64,000 nt of DNA from an uncultured bacterium (GTDB taxonomy: Bacteria > Fermentibacterota > Fermentibacteria > Fermentibacterales > JCC-6). The DNA lies in NCBI GenBank assembly GCA_964423505.1, contig CAYREX010000002.1:24188-88187 (forward strand). The letters run 5' to 3'. The notes under the pieces were generated by a model, which was given only the letters and a program-made list of their open reading frames with translations, was not told where the DNA came from and ran no database searches. Shown one piece after another: positions 2,241 through 51,308 of the stretch (position 1 is its first letter; each line of letters starts with the position of its first letter). The translations under genes and the position numbers were made by a program.

Positions 2241-2793
2241 CATTGGCAGGGAAGAGGCGCTGGAGCTGCTGGAGGAGAACCTCGGGAACATCAACCTAAG
2301 GAGACACTGCCTGGCCACCGAGGCGGTCATGCGCCGGGTGGCTCCCCGCTCCGGCGGGGACCCGGAGCTCTGGGGGCTCACCGGCCTTCTGCACGACCTG
2401 GACTACGAGAGGACGTCCGACGACTTCTCCCGGCACGGCATGGTGACGGCCGAGATGCTGGAGGGCAGGCTCCCGGAGGAGGCCCTGAGGGCCATAAGGG
2501 CCCACAACGCGGAGCACACCGGGGTCCGGCGGGAGAGCGACCTGGAGCACCTGCTGGCCGCCGGCGAGTCGCTGACCGGGCTCATCGTGGCCACCGCCCT
2601 TGTCTACCCGGACAGGAAGATAGCCGGCGTGAAGCCGAAGTCGGTCCTGAAGAGGATGCGGATGAGCGCCTTCGCCCGCTCGGTGCCCAGGGAGACCATC
2701 AGGGAGTGCGAGCAGGCCGGCTGGGAGCTCCGCGACTTCGTCACGGAGGCGCTGGAGGCCATGAAGGGCATCTCGGACGACCTGGGCCTCTAG
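2224..2793 (+). CDS. HD-domain metal-dependent phosphohydrolase
   Basis: 189-aa ORF with an H...LLHDLDY HD motif. Overlaps the nnr 3' end by 17 nt. Confidence 0.55.
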   Translation: MSSRTDIGREEALELLEENLGNINLRRHCLATEAVMRRVAPRSGGDPELWGLTGLLHDLDYERTSDDFSRHGMVTAEMLEGRLPEEALRAIRAHNAEHTGVRRESDLEHLLAAGESLTGLIVATALVYPDRKIAGVKPKSVLKRMRMSAFARSVPRETIRECEQAGWELRDFVTEALEAMKGISDDLGL

Positions 2794-2861
2794 CCACGGC
2801 GCCCCGCCCGGGGGGGCACCGACAACGGCCGACGGGACCGAAGCAGCCGACGAGGGGACGC

Positions 2862-4076
2862 ATGGAGTTCTCCGACATCAGGTTCGTCGTAGACTTCGCG
2901 GTGATAGTCATCGCGGCGAAGGCCGCCGGCAGGCTCGTGCATCGCTTCCTCGGACAGCCCAGCGTCATAGGCGAGCTGCTGGTCGGGATGCTCATAGGAC
3001 CCTACGCACTGGGCTCTCTGGACATACCGGGCATCGGGCCGCTCTTCCTGGTGGACGACGAGGGGCTCTTCCGGGAGGGGCTGCTCCACGGGATAACCAT
3101 CGTGGGGATAGTCACCCTCCTCTTCTCGGCGGGACTCGAGACCGACCTCCGCAGGTTCCTCCGCTACGCTCCGAAGGGGCTGGCCATCGGCCTGGGGGGA
3201 GCAATTTTCGGCTTCGCATCCGGAGGCGCGGCGCTGCTACTCTGGGGGGGCGCCGCCGGTCTCGCCGACCCGAGGGTACTGGCTCTGGGGGCGATATCCG
3301 CGGCCACCTCCATATCGCTCACCGTACGGGTGCTCATCGACATGAGGAAGCTGGACTCGCCGGAGAGCGCGACCATCCTCTCGGCCGCGGTGATAGACGA
3401 CGTGATCGGCCTCGTGCTCCTCACCGTGGTTCTCGGGATGGCCGGGCATGGCGGCTCCGTCTCCATGGGGAGCGTTGGCCTGATAGTGCTGAAGGGCTTC
3501 GGCTTCTTCGCGCTGCTCCTTGCCGTCGGGCTCGCCCTGCAGGGACGCATCCTGGCCGGCATCAGGAGGCTCGGCGGCGACTCTGCCCAGGCCGCTGCCG
3601 CGCTGGCCCTCGGGATGCTGGCCGCCGGCCTTGCCGAGATGGCCGGCCTGGCGATGGTGGTCGGCGCCTACGTCATGGGCCTCGGCCTCTCGGGCTCCCG
3701 CACCGCGAGGCACATCTCCTCGAGACTGGAGACGGTGAGGGAGCTGCTGGTGCCGGTCTTCTTCTGCGTCACCGGCATGATGGTCGACTTCAGGACCTTC
3801 GGCTCTGTCATCCGGCTGGGGCTGCTCTATACCGTGCTCTGCGTCGTCGGGAAGTACCTCGGCTGCATGGTGCCGGCCAGGCTCTCCGGCTTCACGCCAA
3901 GGCAGTCGAAGGCCATCGGCGTGGGGATGCTACCCAGGCTCGAGGTGGGCCTGGTGGCGGCCAGCATGGCCATGGTCCGTGGCCTCATAGGCGGCCGGGA
4001 CATGGCCGTGGCCATGATAATGATAATCGTCTCTGCGGTGATAACCCCTCCGCTCCTGCAGAGGACGCTGCGCTAG
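2862..4076 (+). CDS. monovalent cation:proton antiporter, CPA2 (Kef/NapA-like) family
   Basis: ATG 2862 (MEFSDIRFVVDFAVIVIAAKAAGRL...) followed by 10-12 hydrophobic helices, with the typical GELLVGMLIGP motif. The longer N-terminal extension in the track is probably not translated. Confidence 0.7.
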   Translation: MEFSDIRFVVDFAVIVIAAKAAGRLVHRFLGQPSVIGELLVGMLIGPYALGSLDIPGIGPLFLVDDEGLFREGLLHGITIVGIVTLLFSAGLETDLRRFLRYAPKGLAIGLGGAIFGFASGGAALLLWGGAAGLADPRVLALGAISAATSISLTVRVLIDMRKLDSPESATILSAAVIDDVIGLVLLTVVLGMAGHGGSVSMGSVGLIVLKGFGFFALLLAVGLALQGRILAGIRRLGGDSAQAAAALALGMLAAGLAEMAGLAMVVGAYVMGLGLSGSRTARHISSRLETVRELLVPVFFCVTGMMVDFRTFGSVIRLGLLYTVLCVVGKYLGCMVPARLSGFTPRQSKAIGVGMLPRLEVGLVAASMAMVRGLIGGRDMAVAMIMIIVSAVITPPLLQRTLR

Positions 4077-5176
4077 CTCGACGGGGGAGGATCGATGGTC
4101 GCTGCGACCCGGATGCTCCCCGGCACCAGGGGGTCCGGACCCCTGACGGAGCCGGTGAGTATCCTCGCCACCTCCCTGCATCCGCCGTCGCAGCCGCCCA
4201 TATGCCTGCACGGCAGGCACTCCCGGGGCAGGACCCCCCCCCTCCTGTAGGCCATCCAGACATCGCTGGCGCGAAGGCCCTCCCGGTCCCCCGCCATTGC
4301 CAGCCTCAGCTCGGAGTGGTTGCACGCCCGCACCCACCCGGAGGGGCCGACCACGAAGAACCCGGTGGCCGCGCTGCACCTGGAGCCGAAGGAGAGGCTC
4401 GGGTAGTCCTCCTGCCGCGCCACGCAGGGGGGGATCTCCGTGCCCACCGAGCCCCTCCTGCCGGCGCGGGAGAGCACCTCCTCCGCCGTCTCCAGCATCC
4501 GCACCACCCGCCCTCGGTCCAGCTCCAGGCGCTCCCTGTTGGCCAGGCCCCTGCCGCCGGGCAGGAAGCGGTTGAGGAGGACACCGGAAGCCCCGGCGAG
4601 CAGCGCGGCGGCGATGGTCCTGTCCAGCTCATCGAGCCCCGGGGCGGTCACGGCGATGTTGGCGGTGACCCGCAGGCCCTTCGACGAGGCTCTCCGGATG
4701 GCTTCGAGGGCCCTGTCCGGATCGCCGCCCCCGGTAAGGGTCCGATAGGTGGAGAGGCCGGGGAGGCTGACGCTCAGGGCCGCCCCGACGGACGCCAGCA
4801 GCCCCGTCAGCCGGTTCGGCAGCGACCTGCCGCAGGTGAGCAGCGTCAGCTCCGGTGGGCCCTGGCGCCAGGATACTCCCGCCCCCTCCGGCTCCGGGTG
4901 CCTGGCCTCCGTGGAGGCGAGGTGACCGACTATCGCCTCCAGGTCCTCCCTGAGCGTCGGCTCGCCGCCGGTCAGGGCGAATCGGCTCACGCCGTCGTCC
5001 ACCAGTCCGTCCACCACGGCTGTCCACGCCCCGGTCCCCAGCTCAGGCAGCCGCGCGAAGCCGCCTCCCGGCCTCTCCCACGGGCAGGAGCAGAAGAGGC
5101 AGGAGTGGGGGCACCGGTAGGTCAGCTCGAGGACGGCCACTTGGGGCAGGTGGCCACCCGGCTCCCCCCGGGTCAC
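4073..5176 (-). CDS. radical SAM enzyme with C-terminal SPASM auxiliary-cluster domain (protein/peptide-modifying maturase candidate)
   Basis: CxxxCxxC (LTYRCPHSCLFCSCPW) plus FALTGGEPTL. C-terminal 7-Cys SPASM pattern (CVARQ...CSAATGFF...CNHSELRL...CLPCRHMGGCDGGC). GTG start at 5176 overlaps the upstream gene's stop as GTGA. Its stop shares a CTAG palindrome with the convergent antiporter stop. Confidence 0.7.
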   Translation of the reverse strand: MTRGEPGGHLPQVAVLELTYRCPHSCLFCSCPWERPGGGFARLPELGTGAWTAVVDGLVDDGVSRFALTGGEPTLREDLEAIVGHLASTEARHPEPEGAGVSWRQGPPELTLLTCGRSLPNRLTGLLASVGAALSVSLPGLSTYRTLTGGGDPDRALEAIRRASSKGLRVTANIAVTAPGLDELDRTIAAALLAGASGVLLNRFLPGGRGLANRERLELDRGRVVRMLETAEEVLSRAGRRGSVGTEIPPCVARQEDYPSLSFGSRCSAATGFFVVGPSGWVRACNHSELRLAMAGDREGLRASDVWMAYRRGGVLPRECLPCRHMGGCDGGCREVARILTGSVRGPDPLVPGSIRVAATIDPPPSS

Positions 5177-5802
5177 TCCCCGGCCGGGTCCCCGTCGAGT
5201 CCCAGCAGGCCGGCGAGCCTCTGGAGCTCCGACCTCAGAGGCATGTGCGCGTCGTTGTCGGTCACGTAGTAGAGCTCGCCGTCGATGAGCCCGGCGAGCA
5301 TCCTGAGCTCGGAGACGGTGACGTCGCTGCGGTGCTCGGCGCCGTCCTCCCAGGTTACCAGGAGGTCTATGCCCCGGTCCGCGGAATCGCCGCCGCAGCT
5401 GCTGCAGAGACCGGACTCGTCCAGTACGAAGGAGGCGTCCGTCAGCTCGTCCATGGCGGCGACGAGCCTCCTCGCCTCCGGCAGCTCCCTCTCGAGCCAG
5501 GCGAGCTCCCAGTCGCCGCCGAACAGGGTGGTGTCGCCGCATGCCGGACAGACGTGCTGGACCACGTCGGGGACTGCTATCGGCTCGTAGCACATGGCCC
5601 CCATCACCGGCTCCGGCTCCTCCGATGAGCCCACCCTCTCGAGGAGCGCCTCCACGTCGTCCCGGGTGAGACCCTTCATGTACCTGGCGGTCATGGACTT
5701 GGGGACGTGACGGTGACCGCCGCGGAGTGCGCCGCCCGAGCGCAGAGAGCCGGCCGCGAGAACTGCGCCGGCCACCACCAGCGCAAGGATGACGTACTGC
5801 AT
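5173..5802 (-). CDS. secreted/membrane-anchored hypothetical protein with two CxxCGD motifs
   Basis: ATG 5802 preceded by an AGGGAGG RBS. N-terminal signal/TM (MQYVILALVVAGAVLAAGSL). Motifs CPACGDTTLFGGD and CSSCGGDSADRGID. Translationally coupled to the radical SAM gene. Confidence 0.55.
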   Translation of the reverse strand: MQYVILALVVAGAVLAAGSLRSGGALRGGHRHVPKSMTARYMKGLTRDDVEALLERVGSSEEPEPVMGAMCYEPIAVPDVVQHVCPACGDTTLFGGDWELAWLERELPEARRLVAAMDELTDASFVLDESGLCSSCGGDSADRGIDLLVTWEDGAEHRSDVTVSELRMLAGLIDGELYYVTDNDAHMPLRSELQRLAGLLGLDGDPAGE

Positions 5803-5854
5803 TCGAACCTCCCTGCTCCGGCCCGGGACGCTCGGCGGCCCGGGCGTGACGCCC

Positions 5855-7027
5855 TCAGTCCAGCAGCACCACCGGCGCCGACAGGCGCCGCCCCAGGGCC
5901 TCCATCACCACCACGTAGACCCCGGGAGGGGCCTCCCCCTCCCACTCGAAAGCGCTCCGGCCAGCCGGCAGGGCGGCATCGTGAAGGAGCTCCAGGAGCC
6001 TGCCGCGGAGGTCGTAGACCGCCAGCTCCACCCGGCCGGGCTCCTCGAGTCTGACTACGAGGGAGACGGCCCCCGTGGCCGGGCTCGGCGAGGGGGGCGA
6101 GAGCAACGTCCCGGAAGGGTTGCCGGTCTCCCCCGCGCTCTCGTACTCCTCCCACCGGAAGGTGCTCCTGCTGCTGTTCACCCAGCTCCCTCCGGACCGG
6201 GTCCTCGCCACGACCATGTTGTTGTTGCCGTGGACGTCGTAGGAGTACTGGTAGTGCATCCAGTCGACCCAGCCGTCCTCCCAGGTCTCGTAGAGCACCT
6301 CGGAGAGCCGCCCGCCCGAGTAGGTGTAGCTGCACAGCAGGGAGCTCTCCCATGCGGAGCCGGACCAGTCGCTCAGGAGGGACTCGCTGAGGAGGTCGCC
6401 CTGGTAGGTGTAGGTGGTGAGGGAGTGGTTCACCCATGAGCTGCCGGACCAGCTCCGGCCGAGCGTCTCCGAGAGCAGCTCCCCCCGGTAGTCGTAGGTG
6501 TACAGCCAGGAGTTCTCCCAGGAGTCGGCGGCGCTCCAGGTCCGGACGAGGGACTCCGTCATGTTGCCCGACTGGTACTCGTAGGTGGTCAGCGTGCTGT
6601 TGACCCAGCCGCCGGACCACGTCTGAGTGAGAACCTGCCGCGGCTCCTCCCCGCCTTCGTAGGTGTAGGTGCTCAGCTGGCGGTCCTGCCAGGACGAGCC
6701 GGAGCGCTGCTGGTAGAGCATGGTCTCCAGCCTCTCCTGGGAGTCGTATCCGTAGACGTAACGGTAGGAGCTCTCCCAGGAGCTGCCGTCCCAGGTCTCG
6801 TAGAGGACCTCCGCGATTCGGTCGTCGTCCTCTCCGACGTAGGTGTACGTCGCCCTGGTGGTGTAGTCCCAGGAGCCGCCGGACCAGCTCTCGTAGGTGG
6901 CCTCGGTCATCCGGTAGGCGCTCCCCGCAGGCGGCTGCGGCGCCGGATACCCCTCCGGCGGAGGCGAGCCGGACGCCGGGCAGGGCGCGGTCAGACCGAG
7001 GCAGAGAGCCATCAGCAGAGGGTGCAT
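5855..7027 (-). CDS. secreted tandem-repeat protein (approx. 9x ~20-aa W-S-G-S-S-W...Y-T-Y repeats) with T9SS/FlgD-Ig-like C-terminal sorting domain
   Basis: ATG 7027 with GAGAGGAG RBS. Signal peptide MHPLLMALCLGLTAPC. Repeats such as ESWSGGSWDYTTRATYTY, ETWDGSSWESSYRYVYGY, RSWSGSSWVNHSLTTYTYQG. C-terminus VELAVYDLRGRLL...GVYVVVMEALGRRLSAPVVLLD resembles the Por-secretion CTD. Confidence 0.6.
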   Translation of the reverse strand: MHPLLMALCLGLTAPCPASGSPPPEGYPAPQPPAGSAYRMTEATYESWSGGSWDYTTRATYTYVGEDDDRIAEVLYETWDGSSWESSYRYVYGYDSQERLETMLYQQRSGSSWQDRQLSTYTYEGGEEPRQVLTQTWSGGWVNSTLTTYEYQSGNMTESLVRTWSAADSWENSWLYTYDYRGELLSETLGRSWSGSSWVNHSLTTYTYQGDLLSESLLSDWSGSAWESSLLCSYTYSGGRLSEVLYETWEDGWVDWMHYQYSYDVHGNNNMVVARTRSGGSWVNSSRSTFRWEEYESAGETGNPSGTLLSPPSPSPATGAVSLVVRLEEPGRVELAVYDLRGRLLELLHDAALPAGRSAFEWEGEAPPGVYVVVMEALGRRLSAPVVLLD

Positions 7028-7058
7028 CGGGGCTCCTCTCGCGGCCGGGCGGTGCGGG

Positions 7059-7634
7059 TCAGAGCCGGCGGCCCTCCTCGAAGGCCCGTGCGTTGACCTC
7101 CAGCGCCTTCGGGGGGACACGCTCCTCCAGGGCCTTGCTCCAGTTCTCCTCCTCTATGGGGAGGTGGGGGGAGATGGCGCCGAGGAGCACCACGTTGACC
7201 ACCTTCATGTTGCCGAGCTCCTCCGCCTTCTCCAGGGCGGGGATGGTCCTGCAGGGGATGCCCCTCTCCTCTATGATGGCATCAACGTCGGGATAGACGG
7301 CGGAGCCGGTCTGGACGGTCATCGGGTTTATCTCCAGGTCGCAGGCGACTATCCTGCCCTCCGGCGCCAGGTAGGGGGCCCACCTGAGGGCCTCCATCTT
7401 CTCCATGGCGAGTATCATGTCGGCGGCGCCCTTCTCCACCAGGGGGCTGTAGACCTTTTCCCCGAAGCGCACGTGGCTGGAGACGCTCCCCCCCCTCTGG
7501 GCCATCCCGTGCACCTCGCTCTTCTTGACATCGAATCCCTGGTGCATGGCCGCCGAGCAGAGCACCTCGCTTGCGAGCAGGATTCCCTGCCCGCCGGTGC
7601 CGCAGATTATGACGTTGAAGGCCTCCTCCATCAT
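7059..7634 (-). CDS. iorB: indolepyruvate ferredoxin oxidoreductase subunit beta
   Basis: MMEEAFNVIICGTGGQGILLASEVL...; 191 aa. ATG overlaps the iorA stop (ATGA). Confidence 0.85.
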   Translation of the reverse strand: MMEEAFNVIICGTGGQGILLASEVLCSAAMHQGFDVKKSEVHGMAQRGGSVSSHVRFGEKVYSPLVEKGAADMILAMEKMEALRWAPYLAPEGRIVACDLEINPMTVQTGSAVYPDVDAIIEERGIPCRTIPALEKAEELGNMKVVNVVLLGAISPHLPIEEENWSKALEERVPPKALEVNARAFEEGRRL

Positions 7635-9415
7635 TCCAGTCCCTCCATGTCCTTGGAGAGCGCCCCGACCGGGCATACCTGCACGCAGAGGTTGCAGTTG
7701 GGCCAGCAGAGCAGCCTGCTTATCACCGGTCGGTCGTCCTTCCAGCTTATGGCCGGGCAGCCGAGCTTCATGCACTGGCGGCACGAGATGCACGCGTCCG
7801 GGTCCAGCGTCGCCACGGAGCGGCGGGACGGCCGCGTGGCCATGATGCACGGCCTCCTGGTGATTATCACCGAGAGCTCGTCCCTGGCCATCTCCTCCTC
7901 GAAGGCCGCCTTCATCTCCTTCAGGTCGTGCGGGTCGACCACCCTGACGTGCGGCACCCCGCAGGAGCGGCAGATCCCCTCGAGATCCAGGACAGGCGCC
8001 GGCTCGCCGCTGAGGGTTCGGCCGGTGGTCGGGTTCTCCTGTCCCCCGGTCATGGCCGTCAGGCTGTTGTCCATTATCATGACCGTGCCCGTACAGCCGT
8101 TGTAGACCATGTCTATGAGGCCCGTTATGCCGGAGTGCACGAAGGTGGACTCTCCTATGGCGGCCACGAGCTTCCCGTAGCCCTCCCTGCCCACGGCCTT
8201 CTCCAGCCCGCCGAGGACGCCTATGGCGGCTCCCATGCAGACGCAGGTCTCGAGCGCGTTGTAGGGCGGCATCAGGCCCAGGGTGTAGCACCCGATGTCG
8301 CCGGTGGAGCTGCCCCCCAGCCTGCTCAGGGTGTAGAAGGCGCCCCTGTGGGGGCAGCCGGGGCACATGGCCGGCGGCCTGGCCGGCAGCTCCACCGGCT
8401 CCCAGGTCACCGCCCTCGTGGTGCCCTTGCACAGCGCCGCGCGGACAAGCTGCGGGTTCAGCTCCCCCTCCGTCGGTATGACGTCCTTGCCGTGTCCGTC
8501 GACGAGGAACCGGGCCCTTGTCCTCTCCTCGAGGTAGGGCTCGCCCTCCTCGACGAAGACTACCTCGTCCACCATGCCAATGAATCGCTCTATGAGGTTC
8601 CAGGGCAACGGGTTGCTCATCCCTATCTTCAGGACGTGCGCCCGGGGGTGGACCTCCTTCACGTACTGGTAGGAGATACCGCTGGTTATCACCCCGACGG
8701 GGCCCTCCCCCTCCTCGATGCGGTTCAGGGGGCTCTCCGAGCCCCAGGCCTCCAGGTCGCGGAGGCGCCTGTTCACCCTGGGGTGCATCTTCCGGGCGTT
8801 TATCGGTATGGGCACGCGCTTGGCTATGTCGGCCTCGTAGCCCTTGACCGGGACCTCCCTGCGGGGCCCGACATTCACGATGCTCTTGGAGTGGCAGATC
8901 CTCGTGGTCATCCTGAGCAGGACGGGAGTGTCGAAGTCCTCCGATATCCTCATACCCTCGATGACCATGTCCCGGCACTCCTGGCTGTCAGAGGGCTCCA
9001 GCACAACAACCTTGGCGGCCCTGCCCATCAGCCGGTTGTCCTGCTCGTTCTGGGAGGAGTGCATCCCCGGGTCGTCCGCCGAGACTATGACCACCCCGCC
9101 GGTCGTGCCGATGTAGCTCAGCGTGAACAGCGGGTCCGCCGCCACGTTGAGCCCGACGTGCTTCATGGCGGCCAGGCACCTGGCCCCCCCGAAGGAGGCG
9201 CCGGCCACAACCTCCAGGGCGACCTTCTCGTTCGGCGCCCACTGGGAATCTATGTCCGGGTACTCCTCGCCTATGGCCTCCAGGATCTCGGTGGAGGGCG
9301 TCCCCGGGTAGGCAGATGCGAAGTGCACGCCGGCCTCCCAGGCCCCCCTGGCCACCGCCTCGTTCCCGGAAAGGAGGAGCTCTCCCTCCGTGACCGCGTC
9401 CAGCCTGTTCGTCAT
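7631..9415 (-). CDS. iorA: indolepyruvate ferredoxin oxidoreductase subunit alpha (TPP-binding, 2x[4Fe-4S])
   Basis: MTNRLDAVTEGELLLSGNEAVARGAWEAGVHFASAYPGTPSTEILE...; C-terminal ferredoxin Cys motifs (CISCRQCMKLGCP, CNLCVQVCPVGA). ATG at 9415. Confidence 0.85.
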   Translation of the reverse strand: MTNRLDAVTEGELLLSGNEAVARGAWEAGVHFASAYPGTPSTEILEAIGEEYPDIDSQWAPNEKVALEVVAGASFGGARCLAAMKHVGLNVAADPLFTLSYIGTTGGVVIVSADDPGMHSSQNEQDNRLMGRAAKVVVLEPSDSQECRDMVIEGMRISEDFDTPVLLRMTTRICHSKSIVNVGPRREVPVKGYEADIAKRVPIPINARKMHPRVNRRLRDLEAWGSESPLNRIEEGEGPVGVITSGISYQYVKEVHPRAHVLKIGMSNPLPWNLIERFIGMVDEVVFVEEGEPYLEERTRARFLVDGHGKDVIPTEGELNPQLVRAALCKGTTRAVTWEPVELPARPPAMCPGCPHRGAFYTLSRLGGSSTGDIGCYTLGLMPPYNALETCVCMGAAIGVLGGLEKAVGREGYGKLVAAIGESTFVHSGITGLIDMVYNGCTGTVMIMDNSLTAMTGGQENPTTGRTLSGEPAPVLDLEGICRSCGVPHVRVVDPHDLKEMKAAFEEEMARDELSVIITRRPCIMATRPSRRSVATLDPDACISCRQCMKLGCPAISWKDDRPVISRLLCWPNCNLCVQVCPVGALSKDMEGLE

Positions 9416-9456
9416 CCGATCACTGTCCTCTCCTGAGGTCTCGACCGCGGACCGGT

Positions 9457-10539
9457 CTACTCGTAGACACGTTCCGGCTCCACGCCGTCGAGCACGCGGA
9501 GGACGCCCCTGACGAGCGCCTCCATCTCCTGCTCGCCCGGGAAGACCAGTATCTCCCCGAGGAAGGATATCCTCTCGCTCAAGGTCGCCACCATCCAGTC
9601 GTTGTGGGCTATGCCGCCGGTTATCACCAGGGCGTCCACGTCTCCCTTCAGGGTGGTGGCCATGGCCCCCGCCTCCTTGGCTATCTGGTAGGCCATACCC
9701 CGCAGGGCGAGGTCGCATTCGTCCTCCCCATTCTCAGCCCTCTCCCTGGCCTGCCCCACGTGGTCGGTCCCGGTATATGCCACCAGGCCGCCCCGCTTGA
9801 GCAGCATGCCCTTCAGCTCCCTCCATGCGTAGTCCCCGGAGGCGCACAGCCGGGCCAGCCCGGTGGTCGGGAGCGCCCCCGTCCTGGTGGGGCTGAATGG
9901 TCCGCCGTCGTTGGCATGGCTCGTGTCTATCATCCTGCCGCGGCGCAACGGGTTGACGGAGATGCCGCTGCCGAGGTGGAGGACGACCAGGTTCAGCTCG
10001 GAGAGGCTCCTGCCCAGCCTCTCCGCGGCCTTGTAGGCCACCATCCTGATGTTCAGCGCGTGGCTCAGGCTCACCCTGGGCAGCTCCGGGAGGCCGGAGA
10101 GCCTTGCCTCGGGCACCATCTCGTCCACGCATACGGGGTCCACGATGTATGCGGGGAGCCCCGCCTCCTCCGCTATGTCCCAGGCAATGAGGGCACCCAG
10201 GTTGGAGGGGTGGTCCGCCTGCAGGGTGGAGCCGTCGTGTATGTCCTCCACGAGCTTCCCGTTGACCCTGTAGGTCCCGCTGGAGAGAGGCTTGAAGGCT
10301 CCTCCCCTGCCGACGACCGCGGTGAGCTCCGCGAGGGGCACACCGTGTCGGGCCAGCTCCTCGAGGACCAGGTCCCTCCGGTAGCCGTGCTGGTCGAAGG
10401 TGGTTTCGAAGCGGGCCAGCTCACCGGTGTCGTGCCTTATGCTCTCCTCGAAGACCGGCTCGTCCTCGCGGTAGAGCGCCGACTTCGTGGAGGTCCCGCC
10501 GGGGTTCACCGCCAGGATGAGCCTTCCCTCACCGCCCAT
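9457..10539 (-). CDS. buk: butyrate kinase (acetate/butyrate kinase family)
   Basis: N-terminus ILAVNPGGTSTK and overall ASKHA-fold similarity. Overlaps the ptb 3' end by 11 nt. Confidence 0.85.
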   Translation of the reverse strand: MGGEGRLILAVNPGGTSTKSALYREDEPVFEESIRHDTGELARFETTFDQHGYRRDLVLEELARHGVPLAELTAVVGRGGAFKPLSSGTYRVNGKLVEDIHDGSTLQADHPSNLGALIAWDIAEEAGLPAYIVDPVCVDEMVPEARLSGLPELPRVSLSHALNIRMVAYKAAERLGRSLSELNLVVLHLGSGISVNPLRRGRMIDTSHANDGGPFSPTRTGALPTTGLARLCASGDYAWRELKGMLLKRGGLVAYTGTDHVGQARERAENGEDECDLALRGMAYQIAKEAGAMATTLKGDVDALVITGGIAHNDWMVATLSERISFLGEILVFPGEQEMEALVRGVLRVLDGVEPERVYE

Positions 10540-49989: not shown

Positions 49990-50085
49990 AGAGCACCGTC
50001 GGGCAAACCGGGGGAGACCCCGGGACGCAAAGCCACGGGTCCCAGCCACCGCATGGGGACGGTGGAAGGACGGCCGGGTTGCCGT
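49990..50085 (+). promoter_or_regulatory. c-di-GMP-I (GEMM) riboswitch, copy 1
   Basis: GGGCAAACC-GGGG-GAGA-CCCC-GGGACGCAAAGCCACGGGUCC...GGACGGCCGGGUUGCCG. This matches the GEMM core (GCAAACC, GNRA loop, GGGACGCAAAGCC, 3' AGCNGGGUUNCCG element). Confidence 0.7.
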
Positions 50086-50168
50086 TTGCAGAGGCAAACC
50101 GGGGGAAACCCCGGGACGCAAAGCCACGGGTCCCAGTCCGGGAGACCGGAAAGGACAGCCGGGCCGCC
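50086..50168 (+). promoter_or_regulatory. c-di-GMP-I (GEMM) riboswitch, copy 2 (tandem)
   Basis: GAGGCAAACC-GGGG-GAAA-CCCC-GGGACGCAAAGCCACGGGUCC...GGACAGCCGGGCCGCC. 43-nt core identical to copy 1 apart from the tetraloop. An 8-bp hairpin CCGCCCCG-GGAA-CGGGGCGG follows, immediately 5' of the GAGGAGG RBS. Confidence 0.65.
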
Positions 50169-50211
50169 AGACGACCGCCCCGGGAACGGGGCGGTTGAGG
50201 AGGTGCTCGAG

Positions 50212-50487
50212 ATGAAGTGGATACCACTACTTATGGTAACGCTTCTTCCGTCGGTGCTGTTTGCTGGTGTAGTCGTGACCTCCGCTCCAGCCACCCCCGA
50301 GAATCTCGTGGTCGTGGCGAGGGCATCCATGGAGGAAGGCGACTACGTGACCGCATGGGCTCTCTACGAATGCGCCCTCAGGAGGGATCCCCACTCTCCC
50401 GAGGCACTCGCAGGCAGACTCGCCGCGAGGGCCGAGCTGGAGGAGCGCGGAGAAGAGGACCTGATAGCGGCATTGTACCGGCAGTAG
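50212..50487 (+). CDS. small secreted protein (91 aa; signal peptide + single TPR-like helix pair), hypothetical
   Basis: GAGGAGG RBS then ATG 50212. MKWIPLLMVTLLPSVLFAGVVVTSAPA signal. First ORF downstream of the tandem riboswitches. Confidence 0.5.
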   Translation: MKWIPLLMVTLLPSVLFAGVVVTSAPATPENLVVVARASMEEGDYVTAWALYECALRRDPHSPEALAGRLAARAELEERGEEDLIAALYRQ

Positions 50488-50591
50488 CACCGTACAGAGC
50501 GAGGGGCGGGCCGAGAGGCCCGTCCCGCCAGTTCCAGAGGCCCCGCGGTACCCCGAGAGAAGATGCCCCACAGGAGAAAGGAAGAACCCGT

Positions 50592-51308
50592 ATGTGCGAG
50601 TTCGACGATGAGCTCTACGAGTGCGAATGCGACGATTACAGGCTGCCCCTCATAGGCGAGAAGGCCCCGGAGTTCGAGGCCGAGACGACCCAGGGCCCCA
50701 TCAGCTTCCCCGAGGACTACAGCGGCAAGTGGGTGGTCTTCTTCTCCCATCCCGCCGACTTCACTCCGGTCTGCACCACGGAGTTCATGACCTTCGCCTC
50801 GATGCAGGACGAATTCTCCCGGCTCGACTGCGAGCTCCTCGGCCTCTCGATCGACAGCAACTTCAGCCACATCGCGTGGGTGAGGACCATACGTGAGAAG
50901 ATAGAGTTCGGCGGCATGAAGAACGTCGACGTCCGCTTCCCCATTATCAGCGACCTCTCCATGGAGGTCGCCATGAAGTACGGCATGCTCCATCCGGACG
51001 CCAGCGACACGCAGGCGGTCAGGGCGGTCTTCATAATAGACCCCGACTCGGTAGTCAGGGCCATCCTCTACTACCCGCTCAGCAACGGCCGGAACATGAA
51101 GGAGATCAAGAGGCTCCTGCTCGCCCTGCAGCACACGGACGAGCACGGCGTCGCAACTCCCGCCAACTGGCATCCGGGCGACGACGTCATCATCCCCCCG
51201 CCGGGAACCTGCGCCGCCGCCGACGAGCGCGTCGAAGGCGCCGGCGACGAGTACCGCTGCCAGGACTGGTTCCTCTGCCTGAAGAAGTGCACCCACGGAG
51301 AGTGCTGA
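50592..51308 (+). CDS. 1-Cys/Prx6-type peroxiredoxin with Cys-rich N- and C-terminal extensions
   Basis: FSHPADFTPVCTTEF peroxidatic motif. N-terminal extension MCEFDDELYECECDD. C-terminal YRCQDWFLCLKKCTHGEC. GGAGAAAGG RBS. Confidence 0.85.
   Translation: MCEFDDELYECECDDYRLPLIGEKAPEFEAETTQGPISFPEDYSGKWVVFFSHPADFTPVCTTEFMTFASMQDEFSRLDCELLGLSIDSNFSHIAWVRTIREKIEFGGMKNVDVRFPIISDLSMEVAMKYGMLHPDASDTQAVRAVFIIDPDSVVRAILYYPLSNGRNMKEIKRLLLALQHTDEHGVATPANWHPGDDVIIPPPGTCAAADERVEGAGDEYRCQDWFLCLKKCTHGEC

Follow-up and report, generated by a model that had tools for sequence, protein, structure and literature searches.

A SPASM-type radical SAM enzyme and its translationally coupled cysteine-rich partner: a conserved two-gene cassette that may pair a maturase with its protein substrate

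In a stretch of 64,000 nucleotides from an uncultured bacterium of the Fermentibacteria (GenBank assembly GCA_964423505.1, contig CAYREX010000002.1; the whole stretch is called here the window), a gene for a radical S-adenosylmethionine (SAM) enzyme with a SPASM-type auxiliary-cluster region begins within the last codons of a gene for a small protein with five cysteines, referred to below as the partner. Newly discovered peptide chemistry comes mainly from radical SAM/SPASM enzymes, of which, to our knowledge, very few act on whole proteins (anSME and QhpD). The locus therefore raises a simple question: is the partner the substrate of the enzyme, a subunit of it, or just a neighbour? We found that the pairing of the two genes is conserved far beyond chance in distantly related bacteria, and we consider it slightly better than an even bet (a probability of about 0.55) that they form a self-contained cassette, made of a dedicated maturase and its protein substrate. 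Any particular chemistry is rated as much less probable than this general reading.

The elements of the cassette are the following (positions are those of the window; nt, nucleotides; aa, amino acids):

5173 to 5802, minus strand: partner gene, 209 aa, with a predicted N-terminal anchor, a linker and an alpha/beta domain of about 140 aa that holds five invariant cysteines
4073 to 5176, minus strand: radical SAM/SPASM enzyme gene, 367 aa, GTG start
5173 to 5176, minus strand: GTGA start/stop overlap, the enzyme GTG (5176-5174) overlapping the TGA of the partner gene
5808 to 5814, minus strand: Shine-Dalgarno-like AGGGAGG, read from the sequence, 5 nt before the partner ATG

The boundaries of both genes were reproduced by independent gene calls on two identical public contigs, and the GTG start of the enzyme agrees with the N-terminal alignment to 19 relatives. 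The initial annotation of this locus, which had described a 367-aa radical SAM gene whose GTG overlaps the upstream TGA, is thus confirmed as far as gene structure is concerned.

Conservation of the gene pair

Eighty loci were fetched from one-genome-per-species contigs by enzyme similarity and motifs alone, and all of them turned out to belong to metagenome-assembled genomes (MAGs). When a profile built from 9 partner sequences was run on the six-frame open reading frames (ORFs) of these loci, about 145 partner copies were found. In 77 of the 80 loci the enzyme gene has a partner homologue as its immediate neighbour in the same orientation, nearly always on the upstream side. All these loci had been found via the enzyme alone, and the pairing is not due to chance. 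In 53 loci the start codon of the enzyme gene overlaps the stop codon of the last partner gene; 35 of these show the 4-nt ATGA or GTGA arrangement, and in 20 more loci the gap between the two genes is 0-40 nt. Both the translational coupling to a cysteine-containing partner, noted in the initial annotation, and the conservation of the pair in relatives, which it had suggested as a check, were therefore observed well outside the window. The loci span at least 16 named lineages:

Planctomycetota (including Phycisphaerae): 18 loci
Fermentibacteria / Hyd24-12: 15 loci
Bacteroidota: about 11 loci
Lentisphaerae / Victivallales: 5 loci
Verrucomicrobia: 4 loci
Myxococcota, Armatimonadia and Melainabacteria: 2 loci each
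Fibrobacteres, Spirochaetes, Desulfobacterales, Syntrophaceae, Aminicenantes, Acidobacteria, Bacillota and Omnitrophota: 1 locus each
Unclassified: 13 loci

The closest relatives of the window partner include proteins of Fermentibacteria MAGs. Gene overlaps of 4 nt are common in GC-rich bacterial genomes, and the GC content of the window is high (about 0.60-0.73 per 2-kb block). Compact gene packing with no functional link between the two proteins could explain the overlap of a single locus, but not an adjacency that is kept in nearly all loci and across all these lineages while the surroundings change. The conservation data effectively refute a chance adjacency, to which we assign a barely appreciable probability.

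The number of partner genes varies from locus to locus. In a tally of 88 loci, to which the window and those loci found by way of the partner also contributed, 41 loci contained one partner ORF, 31 two, nine three, three four and one five, and the remaining three contained none. The locus with five ORFs, from a Myxococcota MAG (L077, 3289-11149), carries six partner domains that flank one enzyme gene on both sides, with one two-domain chain located downstream of it; some partner chains carry 2-4 fused copies of the domain. One to five tandem ORFs, with up to six domains, per single enzyme is a stoichiometry typical of substrates. As for the exceptions among the 80 loci, one contains an internally deleted partner remnant (L075) and another lies at a contig end, with a weak N-terminal match (L059); the third is considered below, with the points that speak against our interpretation. 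An apparently orphan partner (L005) belongs to a genome that carries a second partner-plus-enzyme pair on another contig (L052).

No third conserved gene emerged when every ORF of 90 aa or longer, up to 5 kb away from the enzyme, was included in a clustering of 84 loci: beyond the four largest clusters (shadow ORFs of the two genes), the next one is present in at most 10 of the 84 loci. The remaining clusters are lineage-specific, and include a cysteine protease, a histidine kinase, FeoB, an ABC ATPase and a DEAD-box helicase. The same clustering revealed no conserved protease, exporter, PqqB/C/D-like, MftD/E/F-like, transporter or Qhp gene near the enzyme.

The enzyme and partner families

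The features of the enzyme that are relevant to its function are listed here:

5084 to 5113, minus strand: SAM-cluster motif CPHSCLFCSC, residues 22-31, with C22, C26 and C29 (CX3CX2C) and the family-specific C31
4178 to 4426, minus strand: SPASM-type auxiliary-cluster region with seven invariant cysteines (251, 267, 285, 320, 323, 329 and 333)
4133 to 4135, minus strand: invariant D348 in a P-D-P motif, about 15 residues after CX2CX5CX3C

The sole Pfam match of the enzyme is Radical_SAM (PF04055), with a score of 61.8 bits against a cut-off of 29.5, which places it in the radical SAM superfamily. The signature of its family is C-x-H-x-C-x-x-C-S-C-P-W, and H24, S30, C31, P32 and W33 are invariant in an alignment of 20 sequences sharing 44-50% identity. 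The SPASM domain, modelled in NCBIfam as TIGR04085, is characterised by the pattern CX9-15GX4C - gap - CX2CX5CX3C - gap - C, which corresponds to two auxiliary clusters. In the present family the cysteines are spaced as C251, C267-x12-G-x4-C285 and C320-x2-C323-x5-C329-x3-C333, and the final cysteine of the canonical motif is absent, with the invariant Asp348 instead. Judging from its position, this residue stands in place of the missing cysteine and may act as a cluster ligand, like the aspartate in PqqE.

A search of NCBIfam gave 28 weak matches, none of which is close to an equivalog cut-off. The best ones were PqqE, on the N-terminal part of the enzyme (72.7 bits, cut-off 381.35), and MftC, on the SPASM part (41.6 bits, cut-off 265); SkfB scored 26.5 bits (cut-off 300), and the anSME and QhpD models were not among the best 25 of the 28 matches. 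The AlphaFold model of the enzyme is confident, with a predicted local distance difference test (pLDDT) of 89.3 and a predicted template modelling score (pTM) of 0.88, and its fold aligns over 275-300 residues with SPASM enzymes. Its structural neighbours are the peptide- and protein-modifying enzymes SkfB, SuiB, anSME and CteB, as expected from the type to which the initial annotation had assigned it. Both the alignment and the model place the beginning of the radical SAM core at about residue 12, and a PDB profile search agrees with the model. Since the core starts so early, the enzyme has no RRE, the recognition element of maturases of peptides that are made on ribosomes and modified after translation (RiPPs). 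The enzyme belongs to a large and broad family: of 8,000 candidates tested, more than 1,100 gave E<1e-10, and identity is 44-52% for the best 120. In the databases, relatives of the enzyme and of the partner are named only "radical SAM protein" or "hypothetical protein". A role in defence was considered and discarded, as PADLOC gave just generic viperin-level radical SAM matches for the enzyme and none for the partner.

The features of the partner are as follows:

5734 to 5799, minus strand: N-terminal hydrophobic helix, residues 2-23, QYVILALVVAGAVLAAGSLRSG, followed by an R/H-rich linker
5587 to 5601, minus strand: G-A-M-C-Y loop, residues 68-72, with the fifth invariant cysteine (C71), a candidate modification site
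5536 to 5550, minus strand: first knuckle, CPACG, with C85 and C88 at the turn of a beta-hairpin
5395 to 5424, minus strand: L-D-E-x-x-x-C-x-x-C, residues 127-136, with the second knuckle (C133/C136) preceded by conserved acidic residues

The window partner holds exactly five cysteines, and these are the five that are invariant in its family. Conservation was measured in 148 domains. In the G-A-M-C-Y loop, G is conserved in 85% of them, A in 93%, M in 88%, C in 95% and Y in 94%; in the first knuckle the two cysteines reach 96% and 93%, the proline between them 93% and the glycine 89%; in the second knuckle L reaches 93%, D 91%, E 94% and the two cysteines 98% and 99%. Around these motifs the family shows the patterns Y-x-C-P-x-C-G-x-K-T-x-Y and L-D-E-x-x-F-C-x-x-C, together with R111, P143, D165-L, G175, P-L (188-189), R195 and L-L-G. 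Conserved acidic residues stand beside the cysteines, namely E82 before C85 and D128-E129 before C133. The initial annotation had described the protein as "double CxxCGD": CPACGD...GGD and CSSCGGDSADRGID are indeed present in the window partner, but the GD is not conserved in the family, which retains CPxCG, CxxC and the fifth cysteine in G-A-M-C-Y that the annotation did not mention. The two CxxC pairs resemble the knuckle pair of a metal site of the zinc-ribbon type. Readings of the G-A-M-C-Y loop as a HypC-like "MC..P" or a glycyl-radical motif were rejected on account of its internal position, the different fold and a glycine that is not invariant.

The partner matches nothing in Pfam-A (2025), NCBIfam (June 2026) or PADLOC. 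The profile matches obtained were all sub-threshold: one to Nop10 (E 0.003), and sporadic ones to Pfam Zn_ribbon in a few of the 78 family members that were scanned. In the HMM searches that the initial annotation had proposed, the enzyme thus remained under all NCBIfam equivalog cut-offs and the partner gave no family match at all. A word-indexed search for homologues of the partner returned 9 proteins only, as if the family were rare; this impression was overturned by an exhaustive HMMER search, which gave 897 clusters (50% identity) at E<=1e-3, 680 of which reached E<=1e-10. The AlphaFold (AF2) model of the partner, calculated from a 78-sequence alignment, has a pLDDT of 88.4 and a pTM of 0.76. 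Its N-terminal part consists of helix 2-23, a disordered linker, helix 47-59 and an extended loop (60-79) that contains G-A-M-C-Y. The chain is then predicted to form a beta-hairpin whose turn holds CPxCG, followed by a long helix (97-120) and by a small sheet with two helices, the second CxxC being located in a loop. A PDB fold search with this confident model found no match, nor any match to a PqqD-like fold.

In 111 of 117 full-length representatives of the partner family an uncharged N-terminus is followed by an uncharged run of about 22 residues and then by net positive charge, which is the signature of an N-out/C-in segment. Typical partners start with MWY..., MPY... or MQY..., and their net charge is about +2 in the 12 residues after the hydrophobic run. 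Secreted proteins and lipoproteins are recognised by positive charge in the n-region, a short h-region and a cleavage site for signal peptidase I or II; the window partner, beginning with MQYVILALVV..., shows no charge in the n-region and an uncharged run of about 22 residues, followed by R/H residues. The hydrophobic N-terminus (2-23) that the initial annotation had seen in this 209-aa protein is therefore real, but the term "secreted" that went with it is not supported, either by this charge pattern or by members of the family that have no anchor. Four representative clusters (P0193, P0195, P0196 and P0217) are devoid of a hydrophobic segment and end with a C-terminal DksA/TraR C4 zinc finger, which matches with 29-43 bits against a cut-off of 24.9 bits. 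Such fusions are found at L088:3761-4837 and L089:1527-2603, with a gene of the same radical SAM family following them; one of these fusions overlaps the following enzyme gene, whose product scores 575 bits against the enzyme family profile. In two other cases, both stop-to-stop ORFs, GAF and MshEN domains precede the partner domain (L083:4344-5957, a Syntrophaceae MAG) or the partner domain is joined to DUF4116 repeats (L067:4684-5952, a Lentisphaeria MAG). Taken together, these sequence features indicate that the partner domain probably faces the cytoplasm in most cases, although a minority of members, described below, point the other way.

Substrate, subunit or precursor

We favour an enzyme-substrate relationship because the partner domains that go with one enzyme, in tandem or fused, vary in number, because translation of the two genes is coupled and no other gene is conserved with them, and because the linkage persists when other domains replace the anchor of the partner. 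The same logic underlies the pairing of anSME with sulfatases and of QhpD with QhpC. According to this interpretation, the enzyme would be produced by coupled translation from the same mRNA as the partner, and would recognise and dock on the partner protein directly, without the help of an RRE. SAM would be bound at the CX3CX2C cluster and cleaved to the 5'-deoxyadenosyl radical, which would take a hydrogen atom from a residue of the partner. If the enzyme behaves like its nearest structural relatives (SkfB, CteB, QhpD-type enzymes and anSME), the likeliest outcome would be a covalent change at a cysteine: either an intramolecular thioether crosslink, the substrate thiolate being perhaps held on an auxiliary cluster, or oxidation of Cys71. 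In related maturases the auxiliary clusters directly contact the cysteine or selenocysteine of the substrate (PMC10177961). Candidate sites are C71, in the exposed G-A-M-C-Y loop, and the knuckle cysteines close to the acidic residues E82 and D128-E129. QhpD is a SPASM enzyme that forms Cys-to-Asp/Glu thioethers within the protein subunit QhpC (PMC10114670), and crosslinking of this kind, put forward in the initial annotation, would be one possibility among several. The product would stay in the cell as a modified, membrane-tethered protein, fused to a regulator in some species, and would not be released as a peptide.

A SPASM enzyme with a cognate cysteine-rich partner is well known as a general kind; what is new here is the enzyme family, the partner family, the putative anchored-protein substrate, and the absence of an RRE, a protease and an exporter. 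Literature text searches across 8 million papers, for the motifs of the two proteins and for plausible descriptions of them, returned nothing relevant. In the lack of an RRE the enzyme resembles anSME, which acts on whole proteins. However, the two share 15% identity and do not cluster together, and there is no sulfatase gene nearby; the partner contains neither a sulfatase domain nor a C/SxPxR motif, showing G-A-M-C-Y instead, and is probably not exported. In anSME, auxiliary cluster II (Aux II) is completed by an eighth, C-terminal cysteine, which is absent from the present enzyme family. The likeness to QhpD/QhpC lies in the proposed modification by a SPASM enzyme of cysteines in a small cysteine-rich protein subunit that stays a protein (PMC10114670), and in the acidic residues conserved near the partner cysteines, which recall the Cys-Asp/Glu chemistry. 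On the other hand, the window neighbourhood lacks qhpA/B/E/F/G genes and none is conserved in the 80 loci. The partner shows no sequence relationship to QhpC, has about double its length, and is predicted to adopt a regular secondary structure that includes a ribbon-type Cys4 site.

SCIFF, the substrate of CteB-type ranthipeptide maturases, is a peptide of about 45 residues found in Clostridia, and CteB carries an N-terminal RRE; here the partner is an anchored protein of about 200 aa with a folded domain, the enzyme has no RRE, and the cassette occurs in Planctomycetota, Fermentibacteria, Bacteroidota, Lentisphaerae and others. SkfB has a twitch domain rather than a full SPASM domain, and neither Skf genes nor genes for PqqA, PqqB, PqqC or PqqD accompany the cassette; with respect to both SkfB/SkfA and PqqE/PqqA, the substrate here would be a protein. 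RRE-type RiPP maturases differ as well, the partner being conserved along its whole domain and no protease or exporter being kept. A short precursor gene has no space at the locus, with 52 nt free on the upstream side of the pair and a convergent gene directly adjoining on the downstream side. The initial annotation was thus right in considering the context non-standard, with no sulfatase, Qhp genes or short RiPP precursor and with the anSME, QhpD, PqqE and MftC models all far under their cut-offs.

A number of observations weigh against the maturase-substrate interpretation, or limit how far it can be taken. The partner is predicted to be well folded, with a probable metal site, unlike the typical substrates of radical SAM enzymes, which are unfolded; judging from the model, such a protein would suit an accessory role equally well. 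One locus (L023), the third of the exceptions above, has an enzyme without any partner within 6 kb. A cysteine ends the hydrophobic run, in a lipobox-like manner, in 28 of the 117 representatives, and textbook signal or lipoprotein signal peptides of the MKK type are present in a few members from Bacteroidota and Verrucomicrobia. The TIGR04085 score of the enzyme, 24.4 bits over residues 267-344, is slightly under the 27-bit cut-off. Finally, the identity of the enzyme to characterised relatives is 13-25% throughout, with none standing out as the closest; because it is so low with respect to all of them, the type of reaction cannot be transferred from known enzymes, and whatever is said above on chemistry is based on analogy.

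The folded state of the partner leads to the alternative that it is an accessory subunit, which either tethers the enzyme or is a rubredoxin-like Fe(Cys)4 or Zn(Cys)4 module, and which holds the enzyme in position at the membrane or feeds electrons to it, the substrate being something else, such as a lipid, a cofactor or another protein. CPxCG and CxxC are the classic pair of rubredoxin and zinc-ribbon knuckles, the stable domain is predicted on the cytoplasmic side of an N-terminal membrane helix, and tight 1:1 translational coupling is frequent for enzyme subunits. However, the number of partner domains per enzyme varies from one to six, and 2-4 of them may be fused in one chain; some partners have no anchor and are fused to DksA/TraR or GAF-MshEN domains; a plain metal module does not account for the G-A-M-C-Y loop and its cysteine; and no candidate for a conserved third component was found. 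For these reasons we regard an accessory role as unlikely. If it were true, this would be an unusual SPASM enzyme, in need of a membrane-anchored ribbon protein.

Two further alternatives keep the partner as the target of the enzyme, and differ in what becomes of it. It might be exported after modification in the cytoplasm, where it would be crosslinked from Cys to Asp/Glu, as QhpC is by QhpD, or have a cysteine converted, as by anSME, before Sec export. The signal-peptide and lipobox-like minority mentioned above, the acidic residues adjoining the cysteines (L-D-E before C133, E82 before C85) and the QhpD precedent (PMC10114670) are in line with this idea. The N-out/C-in charge pattern of the great majority, the anchor-less members fused to cytoplasmic DksA/TraR or GAF-MshEN domains and the Cys4 ribbon, which is typical of cytoplasmic proteins, argue against it; in addition, there is no conserved exporter or leader protease, unlike the case of qhpEF, the anSME and QhpD models do not rank among the best 25 NCBIfam matches, and both a sulfatase and the C/SxPxR motif are lacking. 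Export thus appears improbable. Alternatively, the partner might serve as a scaffold or precursor and yield, by excision once crosslinking has taken place, a small peptide or redox cofactor, as for pyrroloquinoline quinone (PQQ) or mycofactocin. Tyrosine is the radical SAM target in PqqA and MftA, and an invariant tyrosine directly follows the invariant cysteine of the partner (C-Y); PqqE and MftC are also the best NCBIfam matches of the enzyme, but with scores far under the respective cut-offs. No protease, PqqB/C/D-like, MftD/E/F-like or transporter gene is conserved, the entire domain of 140 aa is conserved and predicted to be folded, with no split into leader and core, and the C-Y motif is internal rather than C-terminal. 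We consider this last alternative quite improbable.

Going back to the interpretation of the cassette as a maturase with its protein substrate, the fusions of the partner to DksA/TraR and to GAF-MshEN are a hint that it acts in regulation or sensing. It is conceivable, although the odds are rather against it, that the cassette is an undescribed post-translational modification system of anaerobes from many phyla, in which the SPASM enzyme marks a membrane-tethered Cys5 protein of new fold and the modified domain works as a switch of the redox, SAM- or metal-dependent kind. Candidates for the mark are a thioether staple, an oxidised cysteine, or a cofactor derived from the protein itself at the invariant Cys-Tyr. 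Such a switch would explain the recurrent fusion to DksA/TraR, which binds RNA polymerase, and to GAF-MshEN, which belongs to signalling of the c-di-GMP type (c-di-GMP, cyclic dimeric guanosine monophosphate). Whatever the function, the linkage of the cassette, in at least 16 bacterial lineages, is as tight as that of any RiPP pair, and the partner family, with about 900 clusters, is absent from the family databases and has a confidently predicted fold with no PDB match. If the partner is the substrate, the cassette would represent a protein modification that is new, together with a new family of modified proteins associated with membranes, belonging to poorly studied anaerobes such as Fermentibacteria, Planctomycetota, Bacteroidales, Lentisphaerae and others.

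Surroundings of the cassette in the window

The genes within about 5 kb of the pair comprise iorA/iorB-like POR genes and genes for a repeat protein, a Na+/H+ exchanger, an HD protein, YjeF and ACPS; no sulfatase or Qhp subunit is encoded among them. A promoter and terminator scan over 3500-7500 found nothing. The neighbours and other features that were observed are these:

2706 to 4076, plus strand: Na+/H+ exchanger gene, convergent with the enzyme gene
5855 to 7120, minus strand: gene for a repeat-rich protein (390-421 aa) with a signal-like N-terminus, 52 nt upstream of the partner gene
7059 to 9718, minus strand: indolepyruvate/POR-type oxidoreductase genes, upstream of the cassette on the same strand
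49992 to 50171, plus strand: two adjacent c-di-GMP-I riboswitch aptamers (Rfam RF01051)
50217 to 51308, plus strand: ORF with an AhpC/TSA 1-Cys peroxiredoxin domain

At 4073-4076 the enzyme gene and the Na+/H+ exchanger gene have overlapping stop codons, within the palindrome GCTAGC. The repeat-rich protein has a weak type A sorting tail of the type IX secretion system (TIGR04183, 15.8 bits against a cut-off of 23 bits), and the ORF clustering around the enzyme showed that its gene is not kept beside the cassette in other genomes. In the oxidoreductase genes, the Pfam POR domain was matched on a product of 191 aa. Far from the cassette, the two riboswitch aptamers scored 64.9 and 59.7 bits. 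A stretch of about 480 nt separates them from the peroxiredoxin domain, which starts only at residue 146 of the ORF that follows.

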